A stretch of DNA of 59,069 nt, filler included, from Dugesia japonica (taxonomy: Eukaryota): NCBI GenBank assembly GCA_001938525.1. It is 5 parts of 5 records of this genome, joined end to end, with 100 filler letters (N's around TTAATTAATTAA, not from the genome) between each part and the next. Parts side by side here need not be neighbours in the genome. Positions count along the whole stretch, not along the records: positions 1 to 16,522 come from MQRL01607237.1; 4 more parts are not named here. One strand, 5' to 3'. The notes under the pieces were generated by a model that was not told the origin of the DNA, ran no database searches, and worked only from the letters and a program-made list of their open reading frames with translations. Shown in pieces: positions 643-41,394 of this stretch (position 1 is the stretch's first letter; the number at the start of each line of letters is the position of its first letter). Made by a program: the position numbers and the translations under genes.

Positions 643-810
643 TGTTGGGGTCCCACCTGAGTTGATGGTGCACATAGACGCTGGCCGGGGAAAAACGGCT
701 CTCAGGGGTACCCTTTCAAGAATTTAAATCTAATTAGATATTCAGTGTGGAGCGGTTGACCTGCAACCTTTACGGGAGGTTCGCACTCACACACCTTTGG
801 TTTGAGTACA
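643..810. ncRNA. Conserved multi-stem structured element, copy 1
   Basis: CCTGAG(656-661)/CTCAGG(701-706), GGCCG(683-687)/CGGCT(696-700), ATCTA/TAGAT, GTGT-GAG...ACCT/AGGT...CTC-ACAC. Homologous stems covary in the other three copies. Strand unresolved. Confidence 0.65.
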
Positions 811-881
811 TTTTTTCCCTATTATTTTAATTATTCAATGAATAAACGACAATACTAATAATAGACTGTATTGATTTTAAA

Positions 882-1243
882 TTACATTTCCTCTAGAGTA
901 CCCGGGTCTCACCACTGGGTAGGCTCTTCTGGAAAAAAATTGAACACCACCGTGTCGTCGTTATCGTCCTATTGTAGGCATGTCACGTTGCCTAGCTGAA
1001 GAGATAGATCTGCAATGTATCTTTTGAAAAAATTGGTTTTGTTTTGGAGTAGCTGTTTCGTTTGCTCGGTTAGGTCGCTTTGTTTCTTTATAATTGTGTC
1101 TAACTTCTTTATCAATGTATTGCGTTGTGACAGATGTCTCAACAGAGAACGCTCCGTTTGACGTTCGTGGTGTCGTTCTAAAAGAAGTCGTCTGATTATT
1201 CGATGGCATCGCCTTAAACTGTTGGGGAATCTAATTCGTGACA
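882..1243 (-). pseudogene. ORF B copy 1: basic N-terminus, coiled coil, acidic C-terminus; two premature stops
   Basis: (M)SRIRFPNSLRRCHRIIRRLLLERH... continues in frame past TAG 969-971 as DDNDDTVVFNFFPEEPTQW*DPGTLEEM*, matching the tails of copies 2-4. Starts at the tttag|TG acceptor. Confidence 0.75.
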
Positions 1244-1355: not shown

Positions 1356-1675
1356 TTACAAGGTAACAAATCCTAAGGCCTTGATGCCTGAGTCGTTTTG
1401 TCGACCATTTTCTCGGTCTTGGTAGGACCGGATGATCTCGGTAAAAGAGTCTATTTGGGCCTTCCATACCCTCTCCTGTGTATGGGAGGTTTTGGCCTCT
1501 TTCTTAAATGCCATGCCTTTATTCTTATAACGCTTAACCTTGGCCTCGGCTGACGTAGTGGTGGCCTCCCATCGTCGTTTTGCGAGCTTATATAAGTCCC
1601 ATGTGATCTCCATCTCCTCACTTGACTCCTTCAGTTTTTTGGTGGGAACTATGGCACGATTCAACGAGGAATGCA
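1356..1675 (-). CDS. ORF A copy 1: ~106-aa predicted coiled-coil protein of unknown function
   Basis: (M)HSSLNRAIVPTKKLKESSEEMEITWDLYKLAKRRWE..., homologous to 11366-11724 and 15101-15339. Homology starts exactly at taaag|TG; AATAAA at 1344-1349 (minus). Confidence 0.7.
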
Positions 1676-2278: not shown

Positions 2279-3953
2279 TTTTCTCTAAATAAATTTACAA
2301 ATAATTATATAACACAGAAATTACTTTGATAAAAATGAAATTTAATATCGAGAAATGTATCAATTAAATTAAGCAACTTTTTTTATTATTACAATAAATT
2401 AAAACACTGTAGTTAATTTTGAGTCTATATTACCAACATGATTTTAATTAAGTTAATTTCGAAATTATTAATCCTTATTCTTCGGCGTCTAAATCAACTG
2501 GACTAATGAGCAATTTATAGAAATAAAATCACACTGGCAAATTAACCCATATCTATTTGACAATAATATAACGATAATCGAAATCATAAGCATAATTTTG
2601 TAAAATTCAAGGATTTATTAAACATAACCAATCAGGTAATATTAATAGTTGAAATCATAACGTCGTCGCCTCATAGGGGTAATTACAAATATTCCTTCCG
2701 GTGATGCAGCAAAGGTATCGAATATTAACTAATAAGTCAGCATACTAGAATAAAATCCGACGACACACACGTTGATAATGTTATTGACTTCTGTTCTCAT
2801 CTGGAAAAGGCAACAATAATCATTCTCCCGACTTATTGAAGGTGGCCGATCTAACACCGAACGAGGTTCACGAAACGATGAGTTGGATAGCATCTTGAAA
2901 TTGCGCTCAGGAAGAGGCGATATGGGGTTGAAACCTCCCAGAAAGGTGATCATAAACATAAAAAGAATTTCTCCTCTGTAATTCAACAGGGTACCATTCA
3001 CTTTCATTATAATTCCATTTCTCCGAGTAAATTCCCATCAACAATGTTAAATCAAGGCAAAAAAGAGATAGCAACCGCTGCGATATTCATTAATAATTCT
3101 ACTGCCGATGAAAATATAGTACACACAACATGGAACTGTGTTACTGACACACTAACTCTGATGTGACTCATACCATTTATGCATACTAATTTGCTAGTTC
3201 TCGATTCCTAATTTTGTTATTTATCACTGAATCATAAATAAATTTCGTCGGAATTAATTGACATATTACAGAGCTATAGGTTAGACATGGTGAGAGTTAA
3301 TATTATTGGCACATTCTATCCGTGGTGGCCTGAGCTAAACATAGCATCAAGTAGAGAAAATCCATTTTTCGAAAAAATTAATTGGTTGTATGTTAAAACT
3401 GATGCAACATTCATACTTGATTCATGATTAGTTTACCAGCCCTTTTTCGCATTAAATAATCTAAATTTAAATATAGTTGAAACTGAAAATGATAATTTTT
3501 TTAGTAAACATTTAATTGTTACATAACAACTATGTAATTAAGCAGTAGCGATCTACATTTAACAGACAACATTGATATAAATATAGAAAATACCTACTGA
3601 GTAATTCGAAATTTTTTCTGCAACGGGTTTAATTTCCACAACCAAGCTAAATATCAGTTCTGGTTTACTGTAGATGGCGTACACACAATTTTCTCCGTCT
3701 ATTCTGTATTTCGAGATAATAACGTTATAATTAATCGTTTTTTGTTTTTAAAAATTCAACGCACTTACGAGTTATCAGGTGGTGAATGGTGATTAAATTT
3801 TTTCTTCTAATTTCTTCATGAACAGAGGTTAGCTTAAAATCGTATTGGTGAATTGCCTAAATGTTACAATAATAACTGTTAAATTTCGTAACGAAATTGC
3901 TCTCTTAGCCAAGACAATTATTTTTGCTGATTTTTCTTCTAAATTTCTGGGGG

Positions 3954-4083
3954 CTTAAATAGCTTTCTGGATGCAACCCGGCATCATCGCTATTGGCTGT
4001 CTAATTTTAATTCAAATTTCTTTTATTCTATTGGTGTAGACCTGGATTTCTAAGAATTTTTCACCATTTTCTGATACCATTGG
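3954..4083 (-). promoter_or_regulatory. CCAAT x3 + TATA-like promoter, copy 1
   Basis: Minus-strand CCAAT at 4079-4083, 4030-4034 and 3992-3996, then TATTTAA at ~3955-3961. Same layout as 13155-13346. Confidence 0.55.
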
Positions 4084-4368
4084 CGTCTATTTTTAAACCC
4101 ACATTTGATGTTTGGGTCTTTGTTTTATTTTTATTTCTTGGGTTGTTATTGCCCCATTCTTCCAATCCTTGTGGTAGTCCCTCTGATGGTAATAACGTTT
4201 TCCAATTGTGAAATCCCATTGACCAGATAACACTTTTCAGTTTTTCTTACTTTTCTACTTTTTTGATATAAAATATAGATTAACATTTTTTAATTAATTA
4301 AAAATAAAATATTTTATACGCTACAATTTATTCTCAAATAATAAATAAAAATTTTTACTATTTATTAT

Positions 4369-6607
4369 TGTAAGTAGCATTATTTTAGGAATTTTAAATA
4401 ATATTTCTGAAAATATTTTATTCCTATAAATTAATTACTGAGGAATTTTTACTACTTATTAATGTAAGTAGATTCTTTAGGAATGTTAAATTATATTTTT
4501 TTTAAAAATTATAAAGTGAATATATAAAATGAGGACATGAGAAAGTGAGGATTAGAAAAGGTCACAAAAGTACAAAATTTGGTAAACTGAGATAGTGAAA
4601 TAAACTGAAATTTACTGAAATTATTTATAAATAAAATTTCTATTGTGATGCTTTGGGGATTGTTGCCAAAGCAAATCAGCAATTGCGTGAGTATGAAATA
4701 ATTTAATATATTATACAATTCAATAACTTGTATATTATCATTATATGGAAATCTTATGTCTTAATATCGTTATTATATAATCAATATTAATATAAATAAG
4801 CTATATAGTCGGCTATTTAAATTAAATAATAATTACTTTGAAAAATTTATATTAAAATAAATGATTTGTAACAATCGTGTTAAGCGTTTTTATTTTATTA
4901 CTCTGAGCTGCAGTCCAAGTAGGCTTTAGCTTTTATTAAGTAATCTTAAAAATAGGGTGAAAATAATGAAAATTCGGTCTCTATTTATACTAGAGACCGT
5001 TAATAAATCATGTATAAATAAAATAAATAAATACGGAATTATAAAAATTTTCCATGCAAATATAAAAATTTTCATAAATAAATAAAACTATACTTATATA
5101 AAAATAAAATCTAAAATCCAGTAATAAGGATTTAATTGTTTATAATAAAATTTTTAATAGAGATTCCAAATCAATACATTGAATATAATAACAAGGATTT
5201 GTTTGTTTATAATAATTTTTATTAGAGATTCCAAATCAATAAATTGAATCTAATAACAAGGGTTGGATTGTTTTTAATAAATGGAGATTCAATTTAAAAA
5301 TAAAAATTTGAATTATAATGATATAAGAATTTGCACATTCAGAACAAACAACAGAAGTCTGTAACACACAGAAGTCGCAAAATTAAATCACAAAAATAAG
5401 TCTACTTAAAGTTGTGAAATCAGTGAAATAAATAAAGTTCGAATAATTGCGCTGGTCTTTGTTGTTTAGTGGACTGATTGATTGATTAATGCTCTGATGG
5501 TATGAGCTGATTGACTTGGAGTTGTTGCTCAGAAGACTGACNNNNNNNNNNNNNNNNNNNNNNNNNNNNNNNNNNNNNNNNNNNNNNNNNNTTTGTAACA
5601 ATCGTGTTAAGCGTTTTTATTTTATTACTCTGAGCTGCAGTCCAAGTAGGCTTTAGCTTTTATTAAGTAATCTTAAAAATAGGGTGAAAATAATGAAAAT
5701 TCGGTCTCTATTTATACTAGAGACCGTTAATAAATCATGTATAAATAAAATAAATAAATACGGAATTATAAAAATTTTCCATGCAAATATAAAAATTTTC
5801 ATAAATAAATAAAACTATACTTATATAAAAATAAAATCTAAAATCCAGTAATAAGGATTTAATTGTTTATAATAAAATTTTTAATAGAGATTCCAAATCA
5901 ATACATTGAATATAATAACAAGGATTTGTTTGTTTATAATAATTTTTATTAGAGATTCCAAATCAATAAATTGAATTTAATAACAAGTGTTGGATTGTTT
6001 TTAATAAATGGAGATTCAATTTAAAAATAAAAATTTGAATTATAATGATATAACAATTTGCACATTCAGAACAAACAACAGAAGTCGCAAAATTAAATCA
6101 CAAAAATAAGTCTACTTAAAGTTTTGAAATCAGTGAAATAAATAAAGTTCGAATAATTGCGCTGGTCTTTGTTGTTGAGTGGACTGATTGATTGATTAAT
6201 GCTCTGATGGTATGAGCTGATTGACTTGGAGTTGTTGCTCAGAAGACTGACTGTCAAGAATAATTCATAGTATTCAAACAAATAATCTGATAAATTTTTC
6301 AATAAAATNATAAATATTCTACTTTACATAAAAACTTTAAAATTATTTTNAAAAATATCAACTTTTTAATTTAATGAAATATCTCATTTTACATAAAAAT
6401 TTTATAAGATATTTTACCTAATAATTTCATTAAATAAATTAAAAATATTTAATTTTACATAAAAATTTCACAAAATATTTTAACTAATAATTTCATTAGA
6501 TAAATCAAAAATATCGATTTGATTTTGTGGAATATTTTATTTTATAAAATTATATAAAAATTAAAGAAAGATTTCCCAGAAATTTAAATCTATAAATAAT
6601 TCTTACA
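4369..6607 (-). mobile_element. 3' LTR of a Gypsy element (contains a ~0.7 kb duplication across a gap)
   Basis: Minus-strand PPT AAAGAACGGGGA (6608-6619) is followed by TGTAAG at 6607. Matching inverted TGTAAG at 4369 (alternative 4463). Confidence 0.6.
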
Positions 6608-7400
6608 TCCCCGTTCTTTAAAATATTTTTCAATCTTTTTCACATTTCTTTCAATCATTTCTTTCTTTGTCTTTTGATCTGTTTTCTACCTTGATTACCA
6701 TATCGCCTCCAACTTGAAAATGTCTCTTTGTTGGTGTCAACTCTCCGGATTCTTCATTCTTTTCTCCATTATTGAACTATCTTTCTCTATGTATTTTCTT
6801 ACCGAATATCACTTCTGCTAGACTTATCCCCAAAGTCTTCTGGCTTGTTACATTTAGTCTATATTCAATTTCTGGTAATAACTTTTCCCAATTTTTATTC
6901 TTTTTATCTTTGTAATCTCTGATCGTTCTGAATGGTCTCTCTACTATTCCATTTGTATTATGATGATATGGACTTGAAAAGCAAATTGTTATATTCATTG
7001 AATCTGTCATCTTTTTGAAGGCTTTCGATTCGAAGGTCTTCTCACAATCTACATGTATCTCTTTTGGGGCACAAAATCTCAGTATCCATTTATCTTTAAT
7101 CGTTTTGTTTATTGATTCCTCATCTTGTTTAACTAGGGCTGTTAATCATTTGTATCTGCTAAGTTTATCTATTATGACACATATATATCTTTTTCTTCCT
7201 GTGGTTTCTTGGAATGGCTCACAGATATCAATATAAATACTTTCAGATGGTTCATTATCCTTTAATTTTATAGTTTCCTCCTTTGTTCTAACTGTTGTTA
7301 CTTTGTTCATTTGGCACACTGTATATTCTTTAATTACACAGTTTCTCTCAAATCTTCCATATCATATTCATTTTTTAAATAATTTATCACTTTTTCCGTG
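6608..7400 (-). mobile_element. Ty3/Gypsy integrase remnant + PPT
   Basis: FSSPYHHNTNGIVERPFRTIRD...WEKLLPEIEYRLN..LGISLAEVIFGK rve core; frameshifted. Confidence 0.9.
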
Positions 7401-7982
7401 CCTGCGTGCATCAATAANNNNNNNNNNNNNNNNNNNNNNNNNNNNNNNNNNNNNNNNNNNNNNNNNNNNNNNNNNNNNNNNNNNNNNNNNNNNNNNNNNN
7501 NNNNNNNNNNNNNNNNNNNNNNNNNNNNNNNNNNNNNNNNNNNNNNNNNNNNNNNNNNNNNNNNNNNNNNNNNNNNNNNNNNNNNNNNNNNNNNNNNNNN
7601 NNNNNNNNNNNNNNNNNNNNNNNNNNNNTATGCAACGAATTCATATAGTTTAGGAATGGGTCATTGATTTATTGATTTATTTAGTTATTTCGCTTTAAAT
7701 ATTTTTCTTCGAATTATTTTTTAAATAATATTTTTCACAATATTATCATATCCAATACATGATTGACATTTAAATGTTTTATTGAAATGAACTTCATTCA
7801 TTTGTGGAGATGTTGATTTTAATCTGTCATAACAAACTTAAACAATGTCCTCTTCATGAACATTTCAACATTTGTAACAGTTCTGCTTCTATCTGTTTAT
7901 TGAATTATACTCTTGTTAACATTGCTTTCAAACTAACATTGATTCGTTGTGTCTCGAATTTTAGAATTATTATAATTAATGT

Positions 7983-8737: not shown

Positions 8738-9800
8738 TGTTGGGGTGAAACGCCCGTTAAAAAGGAGAAATAAAGCCAAAAAGAACCCAAATCAACAAAA
8801 GAACGGCAGGACCATTATAGCTACCGATAATGAAATGCAGAAAATAAAGCGTGAAATAACCATTGGAAAAAGAACAAAATAAACTTGGAGATGGATACGA
8901 AGGACCGGATAACTTAAAATTAACACACATCAGTATTGAGAATTAAAAGAATTATCCAATTCATAATAAAAATCAAGAAAATCATTATGGGAGAATAATG
9001 TATTTTAAAAAAAAATTTAATTTATTTTGAAATAAAAAGAAGTAAAATTAGCCAAAAATTCGTTTTACCCGAATAACTTCGCTCAAGGAAATCGGAAAAA
9101 ATCAGGGTAAGAAAATACAGAAGGAAAATATCAAGATGCATTGAAATTACCAAGAAGAAAAAACTTACCACCATCCAGAAGGTTGCTGCAGGGTCTTCAA
9201 GATCGGGCCAATAAGAGATCTAGAAATATAATTAAAACAAAGACACAATTGTCATGTGTCACTCTAAAAATAACTGCCAATTGCAGTTCCAAAAATCTAA
9301 AAATATTTTAGAGAATNNNNNNNNNNNNNNNNNNNNNNNNNNNNNNNNNNNNNNNNNNNNNNNNNNNNNNNNNNNNNNNNNNNNNNNNNNNNNNNNNTGC
9401 GATATAAGGAATCATGAGATTAACAGAAAAAACAACAAAAAATAAAATTTTACCGAGTTTTTCAAGATACATTGTTGATATTCAAAAGGAGAACGCCAGC
9501 AGAATTTCTTTCGCAAAACAAATAAATATTAAAAATCGCGGTCATCAGTTATCGCGCATCGGAAGAAAAAACAGAAAGCATAATTATCGTGACCAACTAC
9601 CCCGGAAAATAATTCATTTGTCTCGTGTGGTTATCAACTGTTGCAGAAATTCCTATCAAAAAGAAATATTTTATAGTAAGTGTTGTCATGTAATTTTAAT
9701 TTAATATAACTTAAAGTTGAATGTGATTGCAATTTTATATTTTAAATTAATATTTTAATATACAGTGATATTCCATAACATCTAAAACGTTTATTTTTTT
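8738..9800 (+). mobile_element. TGTTGGGG-element promoter-side fragment (inverted), nested in the previous one
   Basis: TGTTGGGGTGAAACGCCC at 8738. 9208-9316 aligns with the reverse complement of ~13240-13350. Leader motif TGTTGCAGAAA then A|GTAAGT at 9675/9676. Right end approximate. Confidence 0.7.
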
Positions 9801-10567
9801 TGTGTTTTGTTTTCAAACTTGTAGTCAAACAAATGTAATTAAATAATATGATCTTGATTATACGGCCTACAAGCCAAAAGATCCGATAAATCTAAGTCGA
9901 CTATACATAAGTCATTTTTTGCTTCCAAGAGCACACACGTCATCGATAAATCGATAATGAAGTCATAGTGATAAGCGATTTATATCACCATAATTAGAAT
10001 CGATGAGCCAGTTGGTCGAATAAGATAGTTAATCATACACACCTACTAGTAGGTAAACCTCAGTGTATGTTGCTAGTTGCGGAATTGTTTACTGCTTCTA
10101 GGCAACTTCATTCGTTCATGGTTTAAAAGTTTATAATTTGCTTAAATTGATAACATTTATTTTATCAAATAAATACAAGGTCTTCTATTTACTCAGTTTT
10201 GGTAATGTTGGTCAATTATTTACTTATTATGAATAAACTTGGTTAATTATTTGCTCACAAGGGTAATTTTTAGGTGAATTCGGTCAATTATGCCCTCTGG
10301 AATGAACAGTTTGAATGATTTCGTCAATCATTTTCTTGGGATTGTTTAATTTGTGTGATTTTTGAGTTATTTCGTCAATTATTTCCTCGTCCTGGTCAGT
10401 TTGGGTAATTTTTAGATGATTTAGTTAATTATTTCTTAAATATGGATAAACTTAGTCAATTATTTACTCATAGTGTTAGGTGAATTTGAGTGATAATTTC
10501 TTCGGGTTTGTGGGTTAGAGCTGAATTTTAAGAAAATTCATGATAAAAGTCGAGTTTGTTTAAATTT

Positions 10568-10740
10568 TGTTGGGGTCCCCCCTGAGTTGAGTGAAAATAA
10601 CGCGGCTGGGGAAAACAGCCCTCAGGGGAACCCTTTCAAGAATTTACCCTACCGTCCCTGGGGTAGGTTTTCAGTTTATGGCGGTTGACCTTACTCTTAA
10701 TGGAAGGTACACACCAATAAACCTTTGTATTCGGGTTCAA
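10568..10740. ncRNA. Conserved multi-stem structured element, copy 2
   Basis: CCTGAG/CTCAGG, GGCTG/CAGCC, CCTACC/GGTAGG, GTTTAT/ATAAAC, ACCTT/AAGGT. Conserved GAGTTG, CAAGAATTTA, GTTGAC, GGGTTCAA. Confidence 0.65.
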
Positions 10741-10817
10741 TGATTTTTCCTTTATTGTTACTATTGAAAGGAAGAAATTACAATTTTGGATACAGACATT
10801 TTATTTTATAAAAATAT

Positions 10818-11237
10818 TTAAAGTAAATCCAGCGCCCCTGTATCTAGCCATTGGTTTGTTTCCGTTACCACGAAGTTGAAAGCTGCGATGTCGTCTTCGT
10901 CATCCCATTGTGTTACAGATGAGTTGCCTATTCGATGGGACAGATCGGCAATATATTGTTTTAAGAACTCTATTTTCCGCATCAACAGCTGTTTGGTTTC
11001 GGTTTACAAAGCTTTAGTTTTAACCGCCAGATCGTTTTGCTTTTTTATAATTAAATCTAATTTTTTAATCAGCTGATCCCNNNNNNNNNNNNNNNNNNNN
11101 NNNNNNNNNNNNNNNNNNNNNNNNNNNNNNTCAGCTGATCCCGTTGGTCTAGGTGTTTCATAAGTGCCCTATCTGTCTTACGCTTTAGGTGTCGTTCAAC
11201 CAGTAAGCGGCGCATAATTCTATGACACCTTCGGATA
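10818..11237 (-). pseudogene. ORF B copy 2 (gapped, frameshifted)
   Basis: IRRCHRIMRRLLVERHLKRKTDRALMKHLDQR... and tail WDDEDDIAAFNF...QWLDTGALDLL*. AATAAA follows at ~10800. Confidence 0.75.
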
Positions 11238-11365
11238 NNNNNNNNNNNNNNNNNNNNNNNNNNNNNNNNAAAAAAAATATAATTAAACTGATGAAAACTC
11301 AAGTTCATAATTAGAAAAGACAATTAAACAGTTTATTAAACTCAAATAATTAGTAAACATGACAC

Positions 11366-11724
11366 TTAGGAATGGTTGGCCTGAGTGCCCTTATCTATGA
11401 AGAGAAGGGCCAAAGGTGTCGCTGCTCTCAACTTCAATATATTTTCCATCAAACTATTCTCCCGCTCCTCATAAGAATGGACCATCTTGGTAAACGTCTC
11501 AACCTGGGACTTCCACACCCTCTCTTGCTTCTGGGTGGCGTCCGCTTCGGCTTTAAATGTTAAACATTTCCGCTTGTAGCGTTTTACTTTAGCGTCGGGC
11601 GCGGCGATCTCTGCTTCCCATCGCCTTTTGGCTAATCTATAGAGATCCCATGTGAGATCGAGATCTTCACTTGTCTCACGTAACTTTTTTGTCGGTGCCT
11701 GGGATCTATTCAACTACGAATGCA
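11366..11724 (-). pseudogene. ORF A copy 2 (TAG at codon 4)
   Basis: tttcag|TG CAT TCG TAG TTG AAT AGA..., then TKKLRETSEDLDLTWDLYRLAKRRWE. AATAAA at 11332-11337. Confidence 0.75.
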
Positions 11725-13154
11725 CTGAAAGATAAACCCTAGTGGTAATAACAACCATTATTTATTAATAAAAATATTATTCATAATCATAGGACTTATA
11801 ATGAAAAAAAAAATAATAATAATGATAATTGGTGATAATAATAATACTAAAATGTTTGAATACAGTGCCCGTAATGGCAAAATTATTATCCATGCTTATA
11901 ATGATCATTTGGTGGTAAGACTACCGCTAGTTTCAACCACACGGATATCACTAATGATGAGAATAGCCTTGATCAGATTTTGAATCTCAAAAGTCAAATA
12001 TAATGATGAAATATAGACTAGTGGGGATCCCTATTTATTAATACCAAACGGTGTACATAATCATTAGTGTATGAACGTAGAAACTCTTTTTAATTCCGAA
12101 TGATATTTTTAACAATAATCTACCCGAAGGTCATGTTTTAAATAGTCGTGCTGAGAGGTTGCTTAGTAACACCAGTTACTACCAGTGGTCACATTGCACA
12201 CTAGTTTTAACCAGTTGTAGGTGTGTCTAATCGTTATGTCAATACGAGGGTTAAATATGCAACATGACTCATTTACTGGTGCCTAATTCTATCAGTGAAT
12301 ATTATAGCGACAATTCTGCATTTCTAAACATTACAGATGTACTCCCTGATCAAAAAAGAAATCCCATCATCTATTCATCTTGCTATTGCATGGAGTTAAT
12401 GGAATTATCATTATTGGATTTTATCTATTTCGCTGGAAATTCCCTCACCGATTTAAGTTAATATAGTAATTATATGATTGTTTGTTTTTTATAAAATAAA
12501 TAGTTGTTATCACTGTATTTTATCTTTACTATAATATATTGTAAGGTATTGGTTTTCGTGCTCGAGAGTCACCCACAATAAAAAATGAAATGATGCAAAT
12601 TTACCACGGATTTCCCCCTCTAATAACGGACTGTATTTGGTTATGTAATTCGAATCTCGTTAGGTCACACAAACGTGTGTGATGCAATTCATCAACTGTA
12701 ATAAGTGTGTAGTGGACTATTTAATATTTATCAAATAAAATTCATAGTAAGAGGTAGATATATTTAGTTTCAATTTATTACAACCATTATAATACGTTAT
12801 ACATAAAAAAATTATTTCTCAACATAAGGAATAAAATTTTACTTTTTGAATTGAATTACAGAGTTTCTGCAACAGGGTCGTAGTTAGTATGACTGATTAG
12901 AGCGGTTCCTTTCGATAATTATTTTTTTCTTCCTTGTCTGGAAATCGTTGTCTATCTTTCTGATCCTTGATTTATAGTTAGACGTGATTCAATTAAATAG
13001 TATTTACTGTAAGGTTTTCTCGTAAAATTGGATAATTCTTGTTTTTAGTTGTTTGTTGAATTTCTTGAAGCACACAGTTTTTAGTTAATACTTGCGTCTT
13101 ATTGACTTGAATTAGATTGAATTAATGTCTGATCTTTTGCTAAACCGGGGGTCC

Positions 13155-13346
13155 TTTTATAGGATTTTCTGATACACCCCGGCACCTTTCTCATTGGTAG
13201 GTATTTTTGTTTTAGAATTTTATTGGTGTTAGTGCTGATATTCCAGAATTTTCTTAGATTTTTGGAGTCCTGATTGGCAGGTATTTTTAGAGGGCTATGT
13301 GATGGTTCCTTCTTTGTTTTATTTTTATTTTTAGGTATCTGATTGG
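13155..13346 (-). promoter_or_regulatory. CCAAT x4 + TATAAAA promoter, copy 2
   Basis: Minus-strand CCAAT at 13342, 13273, 13222 and 13193; TATAAAA at 13155-13161. Confidence 0.6.
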
Positions 13347-14541
13347 TTCGATCTTGGAAACCCTACAGTACCTTTCCGAATGATGGTAANNNNNNNNNNN
13401 NNNNNNNNNNNNNNNNNNNNNNNNNNNNNNNNNNNNNNNNNNNNNNNNNNNNNNNNNNNNNNNNNNNNNNNNNNNNNNNNNNNNNNNNNNNNNNNNNNNN
13501 NNNNNNNNNNNNNNNNNNNNNNNNNNNNNNNNNNNNNNNNNNNNNNNNNNNNNNNNNNNNNNNNNNNNNNNNNNNNNNNNNNNNNNNNNNNNNNNNNNNN
13601 NNNNNNNNNNNNNNNNNNNNNNNNNNNNNNNNNNNNNNNNNNNNNNNNNNNNNNNNNNNNNNNNNNNNNNNNNNNNNNNNNNNNNNNNNNNNNNNNNNNN
13701 NNNNNNNNNNNNNNNNNNNNNNNNNNGCTTTCCTGGACATTTATGTAGTTCACTACCTTTCTTTATCTTGTATTTGATGACCACCGTGGTTTTAGTCTTC
13801 TTCATCTGGGTGTTTCACCCCAACAATTTTCAAATTTTTAAAAAAATTTTATGGAATCCGGATGAGCAGTTTATGTTGTTTAAATAATGTGGAAATTTTT
13901 AAATTTTTTAAATGAAGTTTTTATGGGAATCCGGAATCTCCGAAATTTCGAAAGTTTTTGTTAAGATTTTTTCACCAATCGATGCAGAATTCGATAGAGA
14001 TTATTTTTCACAAATAAAGACTTTTCGAAAAAATTATTTATCATCTTTTCATGACATGATCATGTGAATTAAATAGAGAAATTTTCGCTGATTCTAAATA
14101 TATATACCTAAAATCGCCAAAGTTTAACTTTATAAAATATTTTAATTTTTAATTAGAGTGTTAACTTGGATTAAAAATTTTTCATTATAATTTCTTAATG
14201 TGTTGAAAATTTATAATAGTATTGATGAAATTTGAAATAATATTTGAATAATATTGATAGAATTAAATTAAGTATGATGGATTTTTAATATTTTTCAAAT
14301 AATTATCACCTGAGTTGGGTGCGGAGAAAAATGGCTGGGGGAAAAAGACAGCTCTCAGTGGACTCGTTCAAGAATTTAGCTAATGCCCCTTGCTTGGTCT
14401 TAAATTTGAACCAGTTGACTCCCAACGCTTATTTAGAGTACTCGCTTACATCTTTTTATCCGGGTTCAAGATTTCCCCTAATTTTAATTTATAAAAAAAC
14501 TGTAACAACAAAATTACAAGAAGAGTTTATTTGTCACCAAT

Positions 14542-14875
14542 TTACAAGTAATTTAGAGCACTCGGGTCTAACCACTGGGTAGGCTCACTATTTGTGAAAC
14601 CGAAGGTGGCCTCATTATTGTCGAGATTCCAGCGAACCCAGGTTTTCTGTTCCAGCCAGTTTGATAGGTTGGCGATGTACTGCTGCAAGAATTCAATTGT
14701 ATGGATGAGAATTTGTTTTTTGACGATAAGATCTAATTTTTTTATTAAACGATTCCTCTGAGTAAGATGGCGCAAAAGAGCTTTTTCATTCTGACATTTA
14801 ATATGCCGTTCTAGTAAAAGTTTTGTATGGGGCGATGGCACAGATGAAGACTGTTGGACAACCTTATTCGTGGCA
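14542..14875 (-). pseudogene. ORF B copy 3
   Basis: tttatag|TG CCA CGA ATA AGG = (M)PRIRLSNSLHLCHR, then a 1-nt frameshift, KLLLERHIKCQNEKALLRHLTQRN...EPTQWLDPSALNYL*. AATAAA at 14526-14531. Confidence 0.75.
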
Positions 14876-14970
14876 CTATAAAATAAATAGATCATAATCA
14901 CTTTTAAAACAAAATATTTAGAATCAAACACAAAGAAAATACAACAGAAAAACATTTATTTATAACTGTT

Positions 14971-15339
14971 TTAACTAAGAACCCGGCTTCTATGAACTAC
15001 GAGTTCGTGTAGCCTTATCAATCATTAACGGCTCCAGTCGAATACTTTTCCTTAACTCAAGCATGTCGGTTACCAGTTTATTCTCCAGGTCATGGAGGGA
15101 CTAGATGATATCAGCAAAAGATTGTTTCCAGGCACATTCCTGAGCAACGGAGGCCTCTGCTTCTTCTTGATAACTGCGACATTCATTCTGATACCACTTT
15201 ACCTTGGGATTTGCTGCAGCTATTTCGGTTTCCCATTTTCGCTTCGCTAATTTATATAGATCCCAGGAAATTTCTATGTTCTCACTGTCTTCTCGAATCT
15301 TTTTCGTGGACGTCACCGCTCGATTCAGGGGTGAATGCA
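14971..15339 (-). pseudogene. ORF A copy 3
   Basis: attcag|TG CAT TCA CCC = (M)HSPLNRAVTSTKKIREDSENIEISWDLYKLAKRKWE. Premature stop at 15101; AATAAA at 14955-14960. Confidence 0.75.
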
Positions 15340-15807
15340 CTGAATAATTTGATGTTATATTAAATCAATGGCTAATGCGACGAGACAGAAAAGGAAACAC
15401 TGTTTTTTCTCAAAGATACTACGTTATTTAAATATTTAAAAAGTTATAAGAATATCACAGCAAAATCATTACTATCAATATTACTTATGCATGTGGTTAC
15501 AAATAAAATAAAATGCTTAAAACAGGTAGAATAAATTTCTTTAAAGGGTATAAGCTAAGGCGTTTATAAAAAAGTAAAACAAAAGGTAAACACAGAATCC
15601 ATACTCGGTATTGGTTGTGGGTGCTGCATTCTTAGCATCTTCATTGGAAGTCGGGTTCCTGATGCTCCATAGTAAGTTTGTGATAAACGCACATACCGTC
15701 GGGGCTGGGGCAGGTGTTCTTTAGGTAAACTGGATTACGAGACTCTGGGGACCATTACAATTTTGGTAGTGCTGGTAGTGCCATAATTATAGTGATAACA
15801 ACAGTAT

Positions 15808-16522
15808 TGTTGGGATCCTACCTGAGTTGTGGTAAAAAAATTATGGCTGGGGGAAAAAATCAGCCCTCAAGGGATCCCTTACAAGAATTTACCTTATGTC
15901 TTTTATAAGGTCTTCGATGTGAAGTAGTTGACTTCCAGCACTTATTTGGAGTACGTACTTACACATCTTTTTTATTTGGGTTCAACATTTCCGAGTTACT
16001 TGAATATAAATATAAAAGCAAGCTCAACAACAAAATTTCGAGAATCATTTATTTAAGTTTAATCACATAGCTAATGCTCCAGGGTCCAACCCCTGGGTGG
16101 GCTCGTCATTCTCAAAATTGAAGGTGGCCTCATCGTCATCGCTATTCCACTTAGTCCATAAACTTAATTCTAGACGGGTGGACAAATCAGCGATGTATCG
16201 ATTCAGAAAATTAATCTTATTTTTCAACATTTGTTGGGTATATTTGGCTAGTTCTCCTTGTTTTTTATGATGATATCCAGCTTCTTAATTAGGCGGTTGC
16301 GTTGGATAAAGTGCCGTAAAAGAGCACGTTCATTTTGTCGCTTTATGTGCCTCTCTAAAAGGAGTTTTTGGATAAGTCGGTGACACCGACGGAGGCTAGT
16401 TGTAGTTGAATTCTAGGTACTACAATTAAAAATATGAGGAATCTTGACAACCAGATGAAACAAATAAGATATCAAATTGATACTAATAAGATGTATTTAA
16501 AATTAAACAATTGAAATTCTAA
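15808..16522 (-). mobile_element. TGTTGGG-element copy 4 (structured end + ORF B, cut by gap)
   Basis: TGTTGGGATCCT at 15808; structured element to 15985. ORF B remnant ~16063-16419 (SLRRCHRLIQKLLLERHIKRQNERALLRHF...WNSDDDEATFNFENDEPTQGLDPGALAM*). Acceptor is ttgtag|TA. Confidence 0.8.
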
Positions 16523-16566
16523 NNNNNNNNNNNNNNNNNNNNNNNNNNNNNNNNNNNNNNNNNNNN

Positions 16567-16578
16567 TTAATTAATTAA
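16567..16578. other. Assembly linker TTAATTAATTAA (also 27617-27628, 39914-39925, 48425-48436)
   Basis: Identical 12-mer with stops in all six frames, embedded in N runs four times. Confidence 0.9.
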
Positions 16579-16622
16579 NNNNNNNNNNNNNNNNNNNNNN
16601 NNNNNNNNNNNNNNNNNNNNNN

Positions 16623-17000
16623 AAATGCGACATTAAAAGACATATAGAGTAAAGATTGGACTGAATTACTGCCAGAAATAGAATTTGGATTAAATTCAAC
16701 GTGGCAAAAGTCTAAAAATACCAGTCTAGCGGAATTTATCTTTGGAAAGAAATAGCAAGTGAATACTGGAACCAACAGGTAACAGAGAAGACGGCACCAA
16801 TGACGACAACCAAAAAGACATTTGAAGATATAGAGGAAGTGCTAGTAATAAATGAAAACAGGAACAAAGATCAGGAACGTTTAGAGAAGCCTTACCAGAA
16901 AGTAAAAAAAGTCCACGACCAAAGATACTTATTGCAGAGAGATGACGGGAGAGGAATAAAGATAAATGTGGAAAAGTTAAAGAATTTTTTTGGGGGGGAT
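16623..17000 (+). mobile_element. Gypsy integrase C-terminal remnant with G-rich PPT
   Basis: DWTELLPEIEFGLNSTWQKS...SLAEFIFGK, and ...KINVEKLKNF followed by GGGGGGGA at 16992-16999. Same family as 6608-7400. Confidence 0.8.
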
Positions 17001-19342: not shown

Positions 19343-19393
19343 GTTGTTATTTAGAAATACGTAATTCTAATAATATAAGTAATTTAATTTAAG

Positions 19394-19609
19394 AAACAAA
19401 ATATAACAGCAGTTCTCGGTGACTTAACAAAGATTTATCATACTGTCAAAACATTATGTCCTCGAGAAATGCAAGCAACTATTGCTTTGAGTAATGTTAA
19501 TCTTCTAGTGAATAAAGGAGAAGTATTTGGATTACTCGGGCCCAGCGGATCTGGTAAGACTACGGCAATGAATTGCGTTGCCAATCTATTAAAACCGTCT
19601 TATGGAAAG
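19394..19609 (+). CDS. ABCA-subfamily transporter exon, NBD with Walker A
   Basis: KQNITAVLGDLTKIYHTVKTLCPREMQATIALSNVNLLVNKGEVFGLLGPSGSGKTTAMNCVANLLKPSYGK. ag/gt boundaries, 216 nt, open. Confidence 0.9.
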
Positions 19610-20041
19610 GTTAAATTTTATCCTGAATTTCATATAATACAATAAATATAATATAATACAGTATTATTATTGTAAGAGCGATTCATAGATTTTAAATATC
19701 TGGGAAATTTTTTAATTTGGATTATATTATATTATATTATATTATATTATATTATATTATATTAAAATTTATTTTTTGAAATAGTTAAATATGATTTCAA
19801 ATATTATAATAAAAGAAAAGTACATTATAGATTTGAAATAAGAAAACATTTTTAAAATATTTTATTTTATTGGATTGAAAATGAAAATTAAATTTCTTAG
19901 ATAATTTGTTTAAATATTATGGATTATTTTTCATTTTTAAAACTTTAATCAAATTCTTGTGATAATAAATAAAACTTATTGAAAATTGTGAAGTTTTCAA
20001 TTTAACTAATTATTATAATGCAATATAATTATAACAAATAC

Positions 20042-20510: not shown

Positions 20511-22152
20511 TAATTTATGCTTGTTTAAACGAATCAATTTAATTAATATTGTTTATACAGGTATAAATACCTATTTGAAAATGAATTATTCCTAAATAAT
20601 GATTGCGAATATTAATTACAGAGGAAAAGTTGATCGAGAATTGACTAGAAAAATGAAATTTTCCAAGTGGAAAACCAGCTCAAGTTGTGGAGAAAACCAT
20701 TAAGTATATCCTTGGTTTCTTTCAATCAGGAAGTTGTAAAATCATGCAGTTCCTTTGAAACCGCCATTGTTATAGGTTCATTGTAAAACTTCAACAATGG
20801 TTTTGCAATAAATAAACATTGCATGCGACAATAATAAAATTTGCATCGAATTTTATATTTTCTATTCATATAGTTTTAGTAATTCATAACTAAAATTCGC
20901 TATAAAAAATGTTTTAAGAAAATATTTAGATCTTTATTTTCTATTTCTGTTTGGTGAGTTACTCGTTCTAAGGGTGGCCCGTTAATTATTTCTATTTTTT
21001 TGTTATAACAAATGTTCATTAAGTTTACTGTTTAATGAGTTCATAAAAAATGAGCCATTCAAAAAGTGTAAATTGTCTAAATCCATCAAAGGATCATTAA
21101 AGTTTTTCTTTAAATCATGGGTCATAAATGTGCTTAAATTTGGTCCACAATGGAGAATTCCAGCCAATTAAAATGGATTAAAAAGATTAATTTATTCGAA
21201 ATTAAATCAACATTTTCATTATAATATAATATGTTTAATTAGTAGTACTATTTATAATAGTGTTGTATATAGTGGTACAAAGTGTTACAGCATTAGTGCG
21301 GCCCGAGAAATCATTTGAATTGTTTTTAGCAGCAGAAACCTTTCGTTCTGAAATATTTCAAATTTTAACTGCAAAATCACCAAAACGCAACCAATAAATT
21401 AGCATATCTTTATTTTATATTTGATGACTTGCATTTTACATATTCGAACTCAAATGTGTTCCTTGAATTAAATAATTGTGATTAGATTATGAACAAATTT
21501 AGTCTTAATTATTTATTAAAAATTAGGATTTAAAATTGCATTTTTTAAAACAAATTAAATAATTCATTAAAATGAAAGCNNNNNNNNNNNNNNNNNNNNN
21601 NNNNNNNNNNNNNNNNNNNNNNNNNNNNNNNNNNNNNNNNNNNNNNNNNNNNNNNNNNCGTACAAAGTCAAAATATAGAATTATTATTGTGAGATGATTA
21701 CTCAATCATCTTTCCGTGCTAGTATAAATAAATTACGTTTGATTGTATGTGTGTATATCAGGTATGTTGACTTATTTGTTTTAGTTATTATTTCATAGAT
21801 TTTCTCAAGACTGCTGGATTCTAAAACAATATATATAAAAGCCGATGATGTCATTTTAGTGAGAAAATATATTTTGGAAACTTTATTTGAACTTCGTGTT
21901 AACAAAAACGAAAAAAAAATTTCGATCGAAGCTTTTATTTTAAATCATTTCTGAAAAACGATCAATGGTTACGTCCAAACAAATATTCTCACAATAATTG
22001 CAATTGTAAAAAATTAAATAACCTTAACAATTTCAGACTCAGCTTTTTCTTTGAAATTATTTTTATTAAAAACTAATTATTTTAAAAATTATTTTTTTAT
22101 AATTAAACTTTTAATAAGTCTTAATGTTTTGTCTAAGCAAAATTGTCTATGT

Positions 22153-22838
22153 CAGAGGTCGGCAACTGGCGACTCCGGAGCCATTGGCGGCTCTTTGATT
22201 CCATATGTAATTTTTTCCTAATTGATGTCATCGCGAGCCCAATTACTTTTCCGTCGTTGTTCTACGAGCTTATTGCACAATTAAATTAAGTATTCATTTA
22301 ATATAAAAGCTTGATCAAAATTTTGATTTTTTTATTGATATCGAATTGTTATCCAATATCAATAAAAAAAATCAAAATTTTGATCAAAGCTTTTATATTA
22401 NNNNNNNNNNNNNNNNNNNNNNNNNNNNNNNNNNNNNNNNNNNNNNNNNNTAAATGAATTCTATAAAACGATCAATGGTTATGTCCAACAATTATTCTCT
22501 CAATAATTGCAATTGTAAAATAAATTAAGTATGATGTAATAATTAGTACTCTTCTTAATTTCGAAATCAGTTAATTACTGACATCCCGGGTGAAAGCTGT
22601 CAACTTGCCATGTTAATTCTACGATTGATCGAGCACCTTCACCAAGTAAGTACTTGTATATTTGTATGAACAATTATGAATGCAAGAGAAATACAAGTGC
22701 AACTATGTATTGATAAAATGATTAATTTAAAAATATTATTGTATAATTAAACTTACTCTAAGTTTGTGGCTCTTGAAAACGGAAAAATTGATATTTTATT
22801 CATATTCAGCTCTTTTGGAAAAAGCTTGCCGACTTCTG
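22153..22838. mobile_element. Non-autonomous hAT (SPIN/Charlie-like MITE)
   Basis: TIR CAGAGGTCGGCAA / TTGCCGACTTCTG; 8-bp TSD GTCTATGT / GTCTATGC. Confidence 0.85.
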
Positions 22839-23795: not shown

Positions 23796-25347
23796 GATTT
23801 CTGCTATTGGTAAGTTGAAATAAATATATTAATTAAAAAAAATTCATTTAATTTCTGAAATTTTAGATTTTTACTTATTTTTAAATAAAACATTTCATGA
23901 CACAAGCGCTGAAATTTGTTTTATTTTTCACATACATATTGAACTTCCCTTGAATGTTTTAAATAATTTATATTTTAACCCTGTGAGGTATACATACTTC
24001 AGAATTATCTAGATTCATGTTAAGCATAATAACGAACTATTTTCAAGATTTATTCGACAACAATTATTAAAAATAAATTACACAACTGTTTTACTATTGA
24101 TTTCTCAAATTATAACTTTACAAATTACAATTTACCAAATACAAATTGTTTATAAAAATAGCAAATTACTACACTAATTTTAATAGAACAAAAAGAACTC
24201 ACAGAATATACCTTGTTGTAAAACGTAATGATTGAATGAAATTACATGTTGCTAATTTATATTTTCCATTTTATAAATCCCGAAACTTACATAAATCTAA
24301 CAATTAAAACAACACAAAATTTTCGTAATTAATCATTTTCCTCAGAAACCACATTAACGTCAAATAAAGTTGCAACTACAGATATCTTATAATAATTGAA
24401 TAATTTTGTTGCAATATAAAGCAATAATCAATACAAATTTAATTTATTTATTTTCTTTCATATTTTGAGGTAGCCAATTTAACTACAACCATCAATACAT
24501 TCACTTAGTATGGCAATACTAAATTTAGGCCACAAAAGTAGCCTTTTGCACTAATAGTTATTTTTACCAGGAACTTTTCTTTTGTGAAATTTCGGTTATT
24601 TTCAATTAAAAAGTAAACAACATGTAACTATTTTATTCTATATTTATCAACTTGAATTTTATATCCCAAATTCAAATGTGTATTCATTGCAATAAATAGC
24701 TGTGACTAGATTATGAATAAAATTTGGTTGGAATGTATTTGTTCGTGATTATTTAAATTTATAAGTTAAATGAAAAAAACATCAAGCGTATCGTTATGAA
24801 TAAAAATTAACAATTGCAGTTCTGTTTGTCTCAAGTAATATGCATATCCTATGAAATAGAATGAAAATTTCAAATATAAATAAATAAATTGTCGCTTTAG
24901 CATATAAAATCAAAATATTAGAAAAAAAAATAAAAAGAAATAATCAAAATTAAACGTGCAGTCAATTTTTGGCGATCATCAAATCTGCTAACAATTTGAA
25001 TTATACTCTTTGTTCAATGGTATATCGATTTTTTAAAAAAATCGCATGAATTACTATTGCTTATTCAACAATTATTGAGTTAATAAAGCAAAACAGAAAT
25101 AAATGGAATTAAATTTAAAATGTAACCTTAAATTGGAACACTCTGTATATCTCATCTCATCTAGAAACTTTCATACTGTAGAACATATAAAATAAATATA
25201 GAAGAATTATAAGACTCCAAAAAAAGCGATAAACGATGTTTAGCAATTAGCGGAATCAATATGAATAAATTTTAAGGTTTTGCAATTGCAATTATAGCGA
25301 GAATAATTGTTGGATGTAATCATTGATCGTTTTTTTAGAGTTCATTT

Positions 25348-25487
25348 AAAATAAAAGCTTCGATCAAAAAGGTTTTTTTGTTTTCTGAGATTGATTTGAT
25401 ACTTCGATAGGAAACGAAGACAAAGTCGAAATATCGAAGCAATCTCAAAAAACAAAAAAAAAGCTTTTTGATCGAAGCTTTTATTTT
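25348..25487. repeat. Inverted repeat of Penelope-type 3' tail around a broken hammerhead
   Basis: AAAATAAAAGCTTCGATCAAAAAG ... CTTTTTGATCGAAGCTTTTATTTT arms. Centre GAAGACAAAGTCGAAATAT is identical to part of the 29444 hammerhead. Confidence 0.75.
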
Positions 25488-25766
25488 TAATCAAATTTTA
25501 AGGTCACCATAAAAATATTACATTAATAAAAATAAATAAATTAACAATTTATTAAAAAAAATTAAAATAATTATTAATAAAAATCACTAAATTAATGAAT
25601 ATAATAACCATTTTTTATACAGTTGAATAAACAATGTGAATTTGGTGTTTTTGATTAGATATTTTCCAGAATTATTTAAACAAGTGATTTATTGAAACAA
25701 ATATTTAAAAAAATGTTCGAAAACAGCCTCGAGTCAGAGAGAAAATTCGATTCAATTATTTATTTT

Positions 25767-26334: not shown

Positions 26335-27480
26335 TGTCTTTTGACAGTCACCATTTGACATTCACATTTCATTGACGACAATTCTTGTAATACATTAACC
26401 CCGTTCATGATCATTCATGCAATGAGATTTATATGTTATTGCATATTCATGTCAGTATTCATACTTTTGAGATAATACTGCTCCAACGGTATCAAAACTT
26501 GCATCGATGTAGAGTATAAATTCTTTTCAGAAATCTGGTAATGTCAATATTGGAAAGCTTATTAATGCTAATTTCATTTCTTCACAAAAATCATACTATA
26601 TCGATTTTGAATTATTTTTCTCACACAGAGTTTCTAATATTTTTAATTTCTTTGGATAATCTCTAATAAACTTCCGATAATATTTAAATATGCCTGAGAA
26701 ACTTTTCAAGCTTTTTACACATTTTGATTTTCAAAATGACTGGATAATTTAAATTTTAATCAGATCGGTTTGAATACCTTTGTCGTTTATAATATGATCT
26801 AAAAACTTGACTTCTTTTTTCAACGGTTCGCATTTTTCTGGATTAATCCTTAATCCTGCGTCTTTAATTGTGTTCAAGACCTTTTTCAATAGAATATAGT
26901 GTGTTTCCATTGAATCGATAAAAATCAAAATGTCATCTAAATATCCCATTACTCCATCCTTCCACATCTCTTTTAATATCTTATTCATCAATTCTTGGAA
27001 TGTTCCAGGAGCTGTCGCAATGCAAAATGTCATTCTATTAAAACAAAATTGACCCTCACTTGTGGAAAAAGCTGTTTTTTCCTTGCGATTCCTTATCAAG
27101 CCTTGATTAGTAATAAGCGTTGGCTAGATCTATAGAGCTAAATTATTTAGCACTATTTAATGTATCCAAAATATTTTCGACGTTTGGCATAAGGAAGGCT
27201 TGTCTTTCCGTAATTTGATTCAATTGTTTAAAATATAGACACCATCTGATATCTTTCCTTTCTTTTTCCAATACACAAAGGTGTATTCCAAGGTGAATTG
27301 CATCTCTTGATTATATCATTTTCCTCTAAATTTTTAATAGCATCATTTATTTTTATTCTGTATAATCTCGCTATGCCACTGCTAAAAATGGCTTTCTTTT
27401 TTTAGAATAAAATAAAAACTTGGACTTACTTCTGAATTAATCGATGTTTGCTCATTTTGTCGTTTGAGAACATTTAGCTC
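26335..27480 (-). mobile_element. Gypsy RT/RNase H remnant
   Basis: KTAFSTSEGQFCFNRM...APGTFQELMN...YLDDILIF; FILYIDASFDTVGAVL; frameshifted. Confidence 0.9.
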
Positions 27481-27672
27481 ATATCTGTTACGAAGATTAG
27501 TAAGCATTCTGGTAGTTGAATCTTCTGTTATTATTATTATAATTCTGAACTTGCATTGTGCGAGTTGGTTTGNNNNNNNNNNNNNNNNNNNNNNNNNNNN
27601 NNNNNNNNNNNNNNNNTTAATTAATTAANNNNNNNNNNNNNNNNNNNNNNNNNNNNNNNNNNNNNNNNNNNN

Positions 27673-29525: not shown

Positions 29526-29622
29526 ATGAATAATAATATAATTTATATTAATAATATGAATATTATTAATAATACTAATGATAATAATATGAATAATAAT
29601 GATTATAATAATGAAAGTAAAA

Positions 29623-39200: not shown

Positions 39201-39252
39201 TTAAGAGGAAAAGGTAGAGGTTAAAAACATAATAAATCAAAACAGTTAACCC

Positions 39253-39316
39253 CTGACGAAAACAAAGTCGAAAATTAGAATTATTATAAAAAAAAATTTT
39301 GATCGAAAATTTTTAA
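39253..39316 (+). ncRNA. Degenerate hammerhead + tail, inverted 5' pLTR of the minus-strand Penelope
   Basis: CTGACGA-AAAC-AAA-GTC-GAAA-ATTA-GAATT followed by TTTTGATCGAA; stems I and II are mismatched. Confidence 0.6.
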
Positions 39317-40941: not shown

Positions 40942-41394
40942 CTGTGTAAGTATTACATCAAAATATACTTTTATTTCATTTAATATAGTATGATTAAAAC
41001 GTTTTAATAAATTTTAACTAGTATTAGAAAGATCCATGTAAAAATTATTTAACAAAAGTTTAAGTAAATTTTCAATGATGATTTAAAAGTTAATGTAATT
41101 TTTAAAATTATTTCCCCCTTATTTTGCATCGGATATTTTGAAGTTCTATTAAGTTTATGTATGGACAAATAATATAATTGATGATCCAAATATTTGAAAC
41201 AATGTAATATGGTGAATAATGACAAAAATAGATGGTCTGATTGTAAATTATTAGAAATCTTTTATGTTAAATTATTTCCTATTAGAAAATTTGTTTTTTC
41301 ATATTCGAAACAAAAGACCAAGCAAGTATGTTTTATTTTAATGTTAATATTTCTTGGAAATGACTCCGAGATTTAGTACTTGTTTATCGAATTA

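Follow-up and report, generated by a model that had tools for sequence, protein, structure and literature searches.

Conserved RNA structures have been mapped for yeast Ty elements and for vertebrate retroviruses. In HIV-1 the primer activation signal is masked by pairing (PMC1865047), in Ty3 and in retroviruses the tRNA makes contacts outside the PBS (PMC5371799), and the 5' domain of Ty1 is pseudoknotted (PMC5454406). A U5 region is 75-250 nt in length (PMC7879559). The planarian element Burro is giant and gypsy-like, has an internal region of up to 25 kb and a total length of over 30 kb, carries accessory ORFs, and is present in thousands of copies in a host with over 70% A/T (PMC6431247, PMC11410931); the available part of a further paper treats Burro expression only (PMC8532177). 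Here we describe a predicted RNA structure at the end of an LTR-like element in a 59,069-nucleotide stretch of DNA from Dugesia japonica (assembly GCA_001938525.1), hereafter the window, which has a GC content of 19-34% in 2-kb bins, contains N gaps, and reads as AT-rich animal genome.

The motif is present in four copies where the original prediction placed them (643-810, 10568-10740, 14307-14469 and 15808-15985), and it runs about 10 nt beyond those limits, to about 819, 10750, 14478 and 15994, giving a length of ~185 nt rather than the ~170 nt first proposed. All four copies are read here on the minus strand, on which the order from 5' to 3' is a G/A run, a leader hexamer, domain I, hairpin II, a linker, domain III and a terminal AACA. 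Copy 1 (643..819) consists of the G/A run at 819-812, the leader at 809-804, domain I at 795-744, hairpin II within 739-726, the linker at 725-716, domain III at 713-647 and AACA at 646-643. In copy 2 (10568..10750) the G/A run starts from 10750 and is followed by the leader (10738-10733), domain I (10723-10673), hairpin II (10668-10646), the linker (10645-10636), domain III (10633-10572) and the terminal AACA, and in copy 4 (15808..15994) the leader occupies 15983-15978, domain I 15967-15916, hairpin II 15911-15891, the linker 15890-15881 and domain III 15878-15812, again with AACA at the end. Copy 3 (14301..14478) is decayed and has lost its terminal bases. Across the four, 69 of 191 alignment columns are invariant, the invariant runs on the minus strand being GTCAAC, TAAATTCTTG, TGAG and CAACTCAGG, while CAAGAATTTA is found in all four copies and at two further places in the window. 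A covariance model was built from the four copies, whose recovery by it is thus by construction; it gave two weak extras (E 1.2 and 4), and no further convincing copy was found in the window.

Three domains are predicted in the fold, namely a long hairpin with bulges, a short one of variable sequence, and a stem that carries a capping hairpin. The hairpin of domain I has 17 pairs, 8 of them changed on both sides, and is interrupted by two bulges of 1 nt and by a CA bulge that is invariant; the GTTGAC previously described as an internal loop is, on the minus strand, a 2-nt CA bulge flanked by conserved pairs. Hairpin II is short and free to vary in sequence. In copy 3 it has 3 non-pairs out of 7, and the ATCTA/TAGAT hairpin proposed for copy 1 would at full length leave a 2-nt loop, so that 4 bp is realistic. 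A fifth version of hairpin II is entered by reads (33 of run X12 and 5 of run X15) that continue behind 10646; by eye, it has a perfect 6-bp stem of different letters and the same 7-nt loop as copy 3. The linker that follows, UAAAUUCUUG, is invariant in the four copies. Domain III is made up of the basal stem, a CUGAG/CUCAG stem, and a capping hairpin whose loop is U/C. Copy 3 has lost the basal stem; in copies 1 and 4 the GGG-NN-CCC strand of this stem forms a perfect palindrome of 8 nt.

The main claim of the original prediction, that base pairs are kept through compensating changes across four diverged copies, was borne out, with 9 of 38 pairs altered on both sides. The RNAalifold consensus has an energy of -22.4 kcal/mol and both-side changes in 9 of 29 pairs on the minus strand, and of -17.2 kcal/mol with such changes in 4 of 25 pairs on the plus strand. 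Column shuffling (n=300) gave z values of -6.9 for minus and -3.6 for plus, with 0 of 300 as low on either strand. In the named 38-pair structure 88.6% of 149 cells pair, compared with 29-44% when the partners are slid, the pair counts are unchanged after realignment to the model, and 0 of 500 shuffles match its pairing; these shuffle controls are not probabilities, and they favour the structure because the four sequences are related and it was derived from those same sequences. Folded singly, the copies are mostly of ordinary stability (z -0.8 to -1.1 for copies 1 and 2, +0.9 for copy 3), copy 4 alone being unusually stable (z -2.8/-3.4). A hand tally by helix, omitting the lost or decayed outer stems of copy 3, gives 135 Watson-Crick cells, 7 that are G-U and 3 that are A-C on the minus strand, and 4 others; the 3 A-C cells would be G-U if read on plus, against 7 of the 149 the other way. 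Strand is signalled most clearly by a single pair in domain I, which on minus reads U-G, U-G, C-G and U-A across the copies. At position 10619 the DNA contigs have a C>T majority (257,019 of 351,483), which would favour plus if the pairing partner is unchanged. Whereas plus had been the strand first leaned towards, the consensus energy, covariation and G-U tally make it very probable that the motif is read on the minus strand.

Two pairings between the 5' edge and the 3' domain, one of them a loop pseudoknot and the other involving the leader, are predicted here and had been overlooked. The leader hexamer is complementary to the 5' strand of the basal stem in 21 of 24 cells, with one double change; a scan of 15,753 blocks gave just one more of this kind, which is the stem of domain I. 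Found post hoc, the leader pairing is not significant alone when shuffled by itself (127/500 and 211/500). It would form at the expense of the basal stem, and the two states differ by 2.2 kcal/mol in copy 1 and 0.3 kcal/mol in copy 2, where they are near-equal, and by 10.7 kcal/mol in copy 4, where the leader-paired state is the worse. The leader octamer is also complementary, in 3 of 4 copies, to a tRNA T-loop-type sequence, with which it may pair; the change in the leader of copy 1 follows the internal partner. Every copy has complementarity between the G/A run and the capping-hairpin loop (8, 6, 7 and 5 bp); the run lies at an offset of -9 to -10 from the leader in copies 1-3, and in each copy its match to the loop ranks in the best 0-2.4% of ~900-1,000 upstream windows. 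The runs involved are simple ones, no compensatory change occurs in this helix among the four copies, and in copy 4 the loop has a longer complement than the G/A run. Only 2-6 nt separate the two 5' segments, probably not enough for the pairings to coexist, and they may therefore represent alternative states.

The motif lies at one end of a larger unit, best seen in copy 2, where the whole LTR-like element, likely a solo LTR, extends over 10568..13825 on the minus strand (3,258 bp including N gaps, ~420 bases being N). It has 8-bp inverted ends, TGTTGGGG at 13825 (minus) and CCCCAACA at 10568, the latter shared by copies 1 and 4, and is flanked on both sides by ATTT, a 4-bp target duplication. 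Among TG..CA pairs with an 8-bp inverted end in the window, 4 of 808 have a 4-bp duplication, so the duplication alone is not a unique sign. In run X4, two DNA contigs link 10568 with 13847 and two link it with 13873; these joints, although not base-exact, are such as related sites lacking the insert would give. The ends of copy 2 fit the animal Metaviridae consensus TGTTRNR...YNYAACA (PMC3601003). Promoter-like U3 blocks are present on the minus strand in copy 2 (13155..13389, with CCAAT at 13346, 13277, 13226 and 13197 and a TATA-like sequence at 13162) and in copy 1 (3916..4192, with CCAAT at 4083, 4034 and 3996 and a TATA-like sequence at 3962); they are homologous (64% between 13389-13120 and 4192-3916), also to 9165-9312, and in both copies the order of parts is promoter block, ORF A, ORF B, motif. 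As sequence motifs alone, U3 promoter motifs, AATAAA and a GT-rich stretch thus follow in order on one strand. AATAAA precedes the motif in 3 of 4 copies, the motif begins ~55-60 nt past the start of the last AATAAA, and from that AATAAA to the end of the element there are 237 nt in copy 2 and 245 nt in copy 4. If the last AATAAA is used, the implied U5 would be ~200-230 nt, inside the 75-250 nt range (PMC7879559). The motif extends to the final base of the element, which is the U5 position. The earlier proposal of a U5-type cis element is therefore upheld as to position, terminal in an LTR-like element and downstream of its last poly(A) signal; packaging, priming and poly(A) control are the candidate U5 tasks. 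Nowhere in the window does a copy adjoin a PBS, a polypurine tract or gag-pol, so the LTR status rests on the ends, the duplication and the promoter anatomy; the copies are probably solo or 3' LTRs, and the element is likely a gypsy-type LTR. Searches with motif DNA patterns returned 0 matches in metagenome contigs and 0 in viral contigs.

Members of the family are nested, copy 4 ending inside the upstream region of copy 3 (15807/15808), and the U3 start at 8738 (8737/8738) is embedded in the CCAAT region that belongs to a second one, at 7983. Remnants of another gypsy family, with integrase (rve), reverse transcriptase (RVT_1) and protease-like pieces, lie at 6780-7417 (-), 16629-16950 (+), 26752-27123 (-) and 44940-48350 (+); a link between the motif and the integrase remnants at 6780-7417 and 16629-16950 was rejected, their own purine tracts and different ends following them. 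Another high-copy repeat (13855-14150, 41327-41994, 43120-43790 and 49631-50048) was the insertion target of copy 2, and a dispersed short repeat family with a GATCGAAGCTT core occurs in both orientations (21899-22531, 25271-25607, 29437-29530 and 39241-39293). A long ORF at 32430-34135 (-) resembles by eye a hAT transposase, a label that Pfam did not confirm. An ABC transporter exon at 19388-19642 (+; ABC_tran E 1.7e-10) implies that the elements may lie in or near a host gene. The N gaps at 16523-16622, 27573-27672, 39870-39969 and 48381-48481 contain the same central 12-base AT palindrome, an assembly artefact.

Between promoter block and motif lie two ORFs, all on the minus strand. ORF A is represented by exons in copy 2 (11366..11724, with an acceptor at 11726-11725, one premature stop and AATAAA at 11337), copy 1 (1356..1675, open over 106 codons, AATAAA at 1349) and copy 3 (14990..15339, one premature stop, AATAAA at 14960). 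ORF B is found as exons in copy 1 (882..1243, with premature stops near its 3' end and no perfect AATAAA behind it), copy 3 (14542..14875, frameshifted, AATAAA at 14531 then a GU-rich stretch) and copy 4 (16063..16419, frameshifted, AATAAA at 16053 then a GU-rich stretch), and in copy 2 (10818..11236) as a frame broken by N gaps, with AATAAA at 10805. Stops, frameshifts or gaps thus affect every ORF copy other than ORF A of copy 1. Where sequence exists both ORFs start at an AG/TG-type acceptor, and AATAAA follows ORF A in 3 of 3 copies and ORF B in 3 of 4. Differences at codon positions 1, 2 and 3 number 156, 74 and 250 over 409 codons in seven non-independent comparisons, and the ORFs were therefore constrained while the lineages diverged. 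Pairwise identity is 59-74% in the motif (68-81% in the linker and domain III), against 47-62% in the spacer next to it and 51-60% towards the 3' end of ORF B. With the both-side changes in domain I, this conservation of the motif while 250 of 409 third positions differ speaks for selection on RNA pairing.

The five acceptors at 11725, 1676, 15340, 1244 and 14876 are all followed by TG in phase 1, and candidate donors lie behind a shared GTTGCAGAAA block at 9675/9676 (+), 3598/3597 (-) and 12860/12859 (-), with A preceding 2 of 3; for these reasons a start codon may be created at the splice junction. SL trans-splicing was rejected as a source of the start codon, since joining these acceptors to a leader with a terminal AUG would give the wrong frame. 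In the low-coverage RNA over 10400-16520 no spliced reads across the ORF donors or acceptors were seen. The ORF B pieces carry 11-13 K/R within their first 40 residues and have an acidic tail, and each ORF is predicted as one long helix by weak models from alignments of 3-6 rows. For ORF A, homologues numbered 0 among 4 candidates, 5,192 longer candidates, 18 viral and 121 metagenome stretches, and comparison with the Atlas gave a best value of 0.82; for ORF B there were 0 among 164 candidates and an Atlas best of 0.81. A search of 1.84 billion representatives gave ORF B a single weak match (1,037 aa, six stretches, E 4e-4), which was set aside as a coiled-coil chance, and Pfam gave only coiled-coil families below cut-off for either ORF. 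The regions upstream of ORF A in copies 1-3 have no clear protein similarity among them. Upstream of ORF A in copy 3, at 15540-15800 (-), lies a decayed Cys-rich frame ending in a hydrophobic stretch; it has no clear match in copies 1 and 2, and accessory cargo may thus differ by lineage.

RNA reads were examined over 10400-16520, which leaves copy 1 outside, in two oligo-dT libraries and one cDNA library of low coverage. The records placed, in both directions, were 18 of 10.5 million, 441 of 13.6 million and 54 of 11.6 million, and none of the reads was 99% alike; they are reads of relatives, likely passengers in other transcripts. No piles of RNA starts or ends were seen in this interval, in libraries that would miss a small non-polyadenylated RNA. 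The suggestion of a separate convergent small RNA finds no support in these ill-suited libraries, or in strand, since the better-supported strand of the motif is that of the ORFs. Summed DNA contig depth, which is not copy number, is 173,432 over 10605-10809 and 5,592-5,986 in the flanking bins, a ~30-fold difference, and 100-230 within 11835-13064; the motif core may be common to many more subfamilies or short derivatives than the ORFs.

Tentatively, we favour a model in which the motif would be a U5-end cis element of read-through genomic RNA, serving packaging, dimerisation and tRNA priming. Genomic RNA would begin at the LTR promoter, cross the acceptors and poly(A) signals, and pass through the motif into the PBS, and the spliced ORF A and ORF B mRNAs would terminate upstream of the motif; if the accessory mRNAs stop before it, the motif would be carried by the read-through RNA only. 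Lying just before the expected PBS, it would be the first template copied, and its fold is a putative mark of full-length RNA for Gag and packaging. In a closed state the basal stem strand would pair with the last bases of the LTR; in an open state it would pair instead with the leader hexamer, freeing bases beside the primer; and in a dimer the palindromic basal strand would pair with the same strand of a second RNA. The G/A run at the 5' edge would form its pseudoknot with the U/C loop of the capping hairpin. The HIV-1, Ty3/retroviral and Ty1 cases introduced above are working analogues of such behaviour and not homologues. The packaging signal of many retroelements is situated downstream of the PBS, which counts against a packaging role in U5.

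Genomic RNA of this kind would have a ~2.5 kb ORF-bearing leader before gag, and the motif might instead govern access to translation, either as an IRES or by hiding a regulated acceptor, CUCAG/G, that joins a common first exon to gag. The CUCAG/G lies ~15 nt from the LTR end behind a pyrimidine-rich strand, CAACTCAGG is invariant in 4 of 4 copies, the decayed copy 3 included, the pseudoknotted shape is compact, and alternative acceptors are apparently used by the element. However, no Rfam IRES family was matched at E up to 10 in copies 1, 2 and 4, no RNA joint at CUCAG/G occurs among the joints listed at low coverage, the AG of this acceptor lies within a conserved stem, and the other acceptors are more T-rich; we regard this reading as unlikely. 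Unlikely, too, is a Rev/Rex-like arrangement in which an early ORF A or ORF B protein would bind the bulged domain I and switch expression to unspliced, exported genomic RNA. The basic start and acidic tail of ORF B, the codon constraint on both ORFs and their predicted single helices would suit such a protein, the anatomy would confine the motif to read-through RNA, and the HTLV-1 Rex element is itself an LTR stem-loop (PMC2664473); yet neither ORF has a homologue or family in the searches made, a basic region with a coiled coil fits a bZIP-like DNA-binding transactivator equally well, and the helix models, from 3-6 row alignments, are weak. The fullest form of this idea would have an invertebrate LTR element run a complex-retrovirus-style circuit entirely inside its LTR. 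Its components would be a promoter, orphan regulators that arise by alternative splicing and are each polyadenylated separately, and a two-state RNA with a pseudoknot at the U5 end, to which one regulator would bind as an independently evolved analogue of Rev/RRE. We consider this unlikely; if it were true, the bound regulator would switch output from accessory mRNAs to genomic RNA.

The motif might also be released from the LTR transcript as a discrete small RNA, either Sm-bound and snRNA-like (hairpin, AAAUUCUUG, hairpin) or a nuclease-resistant remnant left by cleavage at the ORF B poly(A) site. The invariant single-stranded linker AAAUUCUUG does sit between two stems, the pseudoknot would tie the 5' edge back, and E-value scans of copies 1, 2 and 4 against Rfam 15 gave as best match SmY in copy 4 (E 0.33), on the minus strand with the linker aligned to the Sm site; in another flatworm, S. 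mansoni, the SL RNA has an Sm site with an internal C (PMC7986045). Against this, the SmY match scores 15.4 bits where the threshold is 39, copies 1 and 2 have none, AAAUUCUUG does not fit AC?T{4,6}G, and no piles of read starts or ends appear, in libraries ill suited to show them, and we judge a discrete small RNA very unlikely. A non-autonomous Ginger-like DNA transposon, or a structure acting in DNA without a role as RNA, is highly improbable: Ginger1 has TG...CA ends and a 4-bp duplication (PMC6839031) and neither a PBS nor an internal region was seen in the window, but the inverted ends here are just 8 bp, the structure occupies a single end, no integrase-like ORF is found in what is sequenced of 10568-13825 (~420 bases N), and U-G wobbles on one strand point to single-stranded RNA. 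Invariant unpaired bases, a pseudoknot and a retroelement setting would also suit a new self-cleaving ribozyme in the LTR. Hammerhead ribozymes occur in retrozymes. No ribozyme family of Rfam was matched, however, in the whole window at threshold or in copies 1, 2 and 4 by E-value, and cleavage within U5 would sever R from the PBS and so block replication; such a ribozyme is extremely unlikely.

As to known families, the motif had been put forward as unrecognised, and comparison with Rfam 15 gave 0 matches at gathering score in the window; tRNA and tmRNA genes found also numbered 0. A Pol III B-box reading of GGGTTCAA on the plus strand was rejected, its spacing to CC not fitting the consensus and the sequence being absent in copy 1, and so was a tRNA-like 3' end, the stem being followed by AACA, not CCA. 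SmY (RF01844) shares with the motif the succession of stem, U-rich single strand and stem and a sub-threshold match in copy 4, but the motif is twice as long, does not have the Sm consensus, is matched in one copy only and has no discrete ends seen. The HIV-1-type U5/leader is alike in having structured RNA just upstream of the PBS position and a short motif masked by alternative pairing (PMC1865047), whereas the motif here is without sequence or Rfam similarity to retroviral leaders, is wholly in the LTR, and stands behind ~2.3 kb of ORF-bearing sequence. The Ty1 TIPIRT and Ty3 complexes share a pseudoknotted cis domain near an LTR retrotransposon priming site (PMC5454406, PMC5371799), but the Ty1 domain there is the first 326 nt of the RNA, and the motif here is at the far end of a 3.3-kb LTR and of different topology. 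The motif would work like a retroelement U5/leader element, and membership in Burro or in any RNA family is not claimed for it. The literature covered, which excludes the original Burro description, Repbase and supplements, reports no such motif for planarian-type or giant animal LTR elements; these LTRs could already be in that description, the supplements or Repbase. The likeness to Burro is one of description, not of Burro sequence, in that multi-kb LTRs are implied, and the section of the Burro account covered (PMC6431247) mentions neither ORFs nor structured RNA inside the LTR.

What is unusual is the fold itself, a compact one kept across four lineages whose third codon positions differ at ~60% of sites, together with an LTR whose own promoter block is followed by a set of genes predicted to be spliced and polyadenylated separately. 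Genomic RNA from such an LTR would have to pass several acceptors and poly(A) signals and yet be primed, packaged and translated, and the motif is a testable handle on how this is done. With its core at ~30 times the depth of neighbouring DNA, the covariance model should be a good probe for finding and classing such elements. A Metaviridae LTR is expected to be non-coding, whereas the LTR of this copy family holds two constrained ORFs. Vertebrate retroviruses are alike in this respect, MMTV sag, lentiviral nef and the HTLV-1 RexRE providing ORFs and a regulatory stem-loop in the LTR (PMC2664473). However, the 5' third of the LTR is where sag and nef are located, while the ORFs here are downstream of the LTR's own promoter motifs, have an acceptor and a poly(A) signal apiece, and belong to what is likely an invertebrate element.
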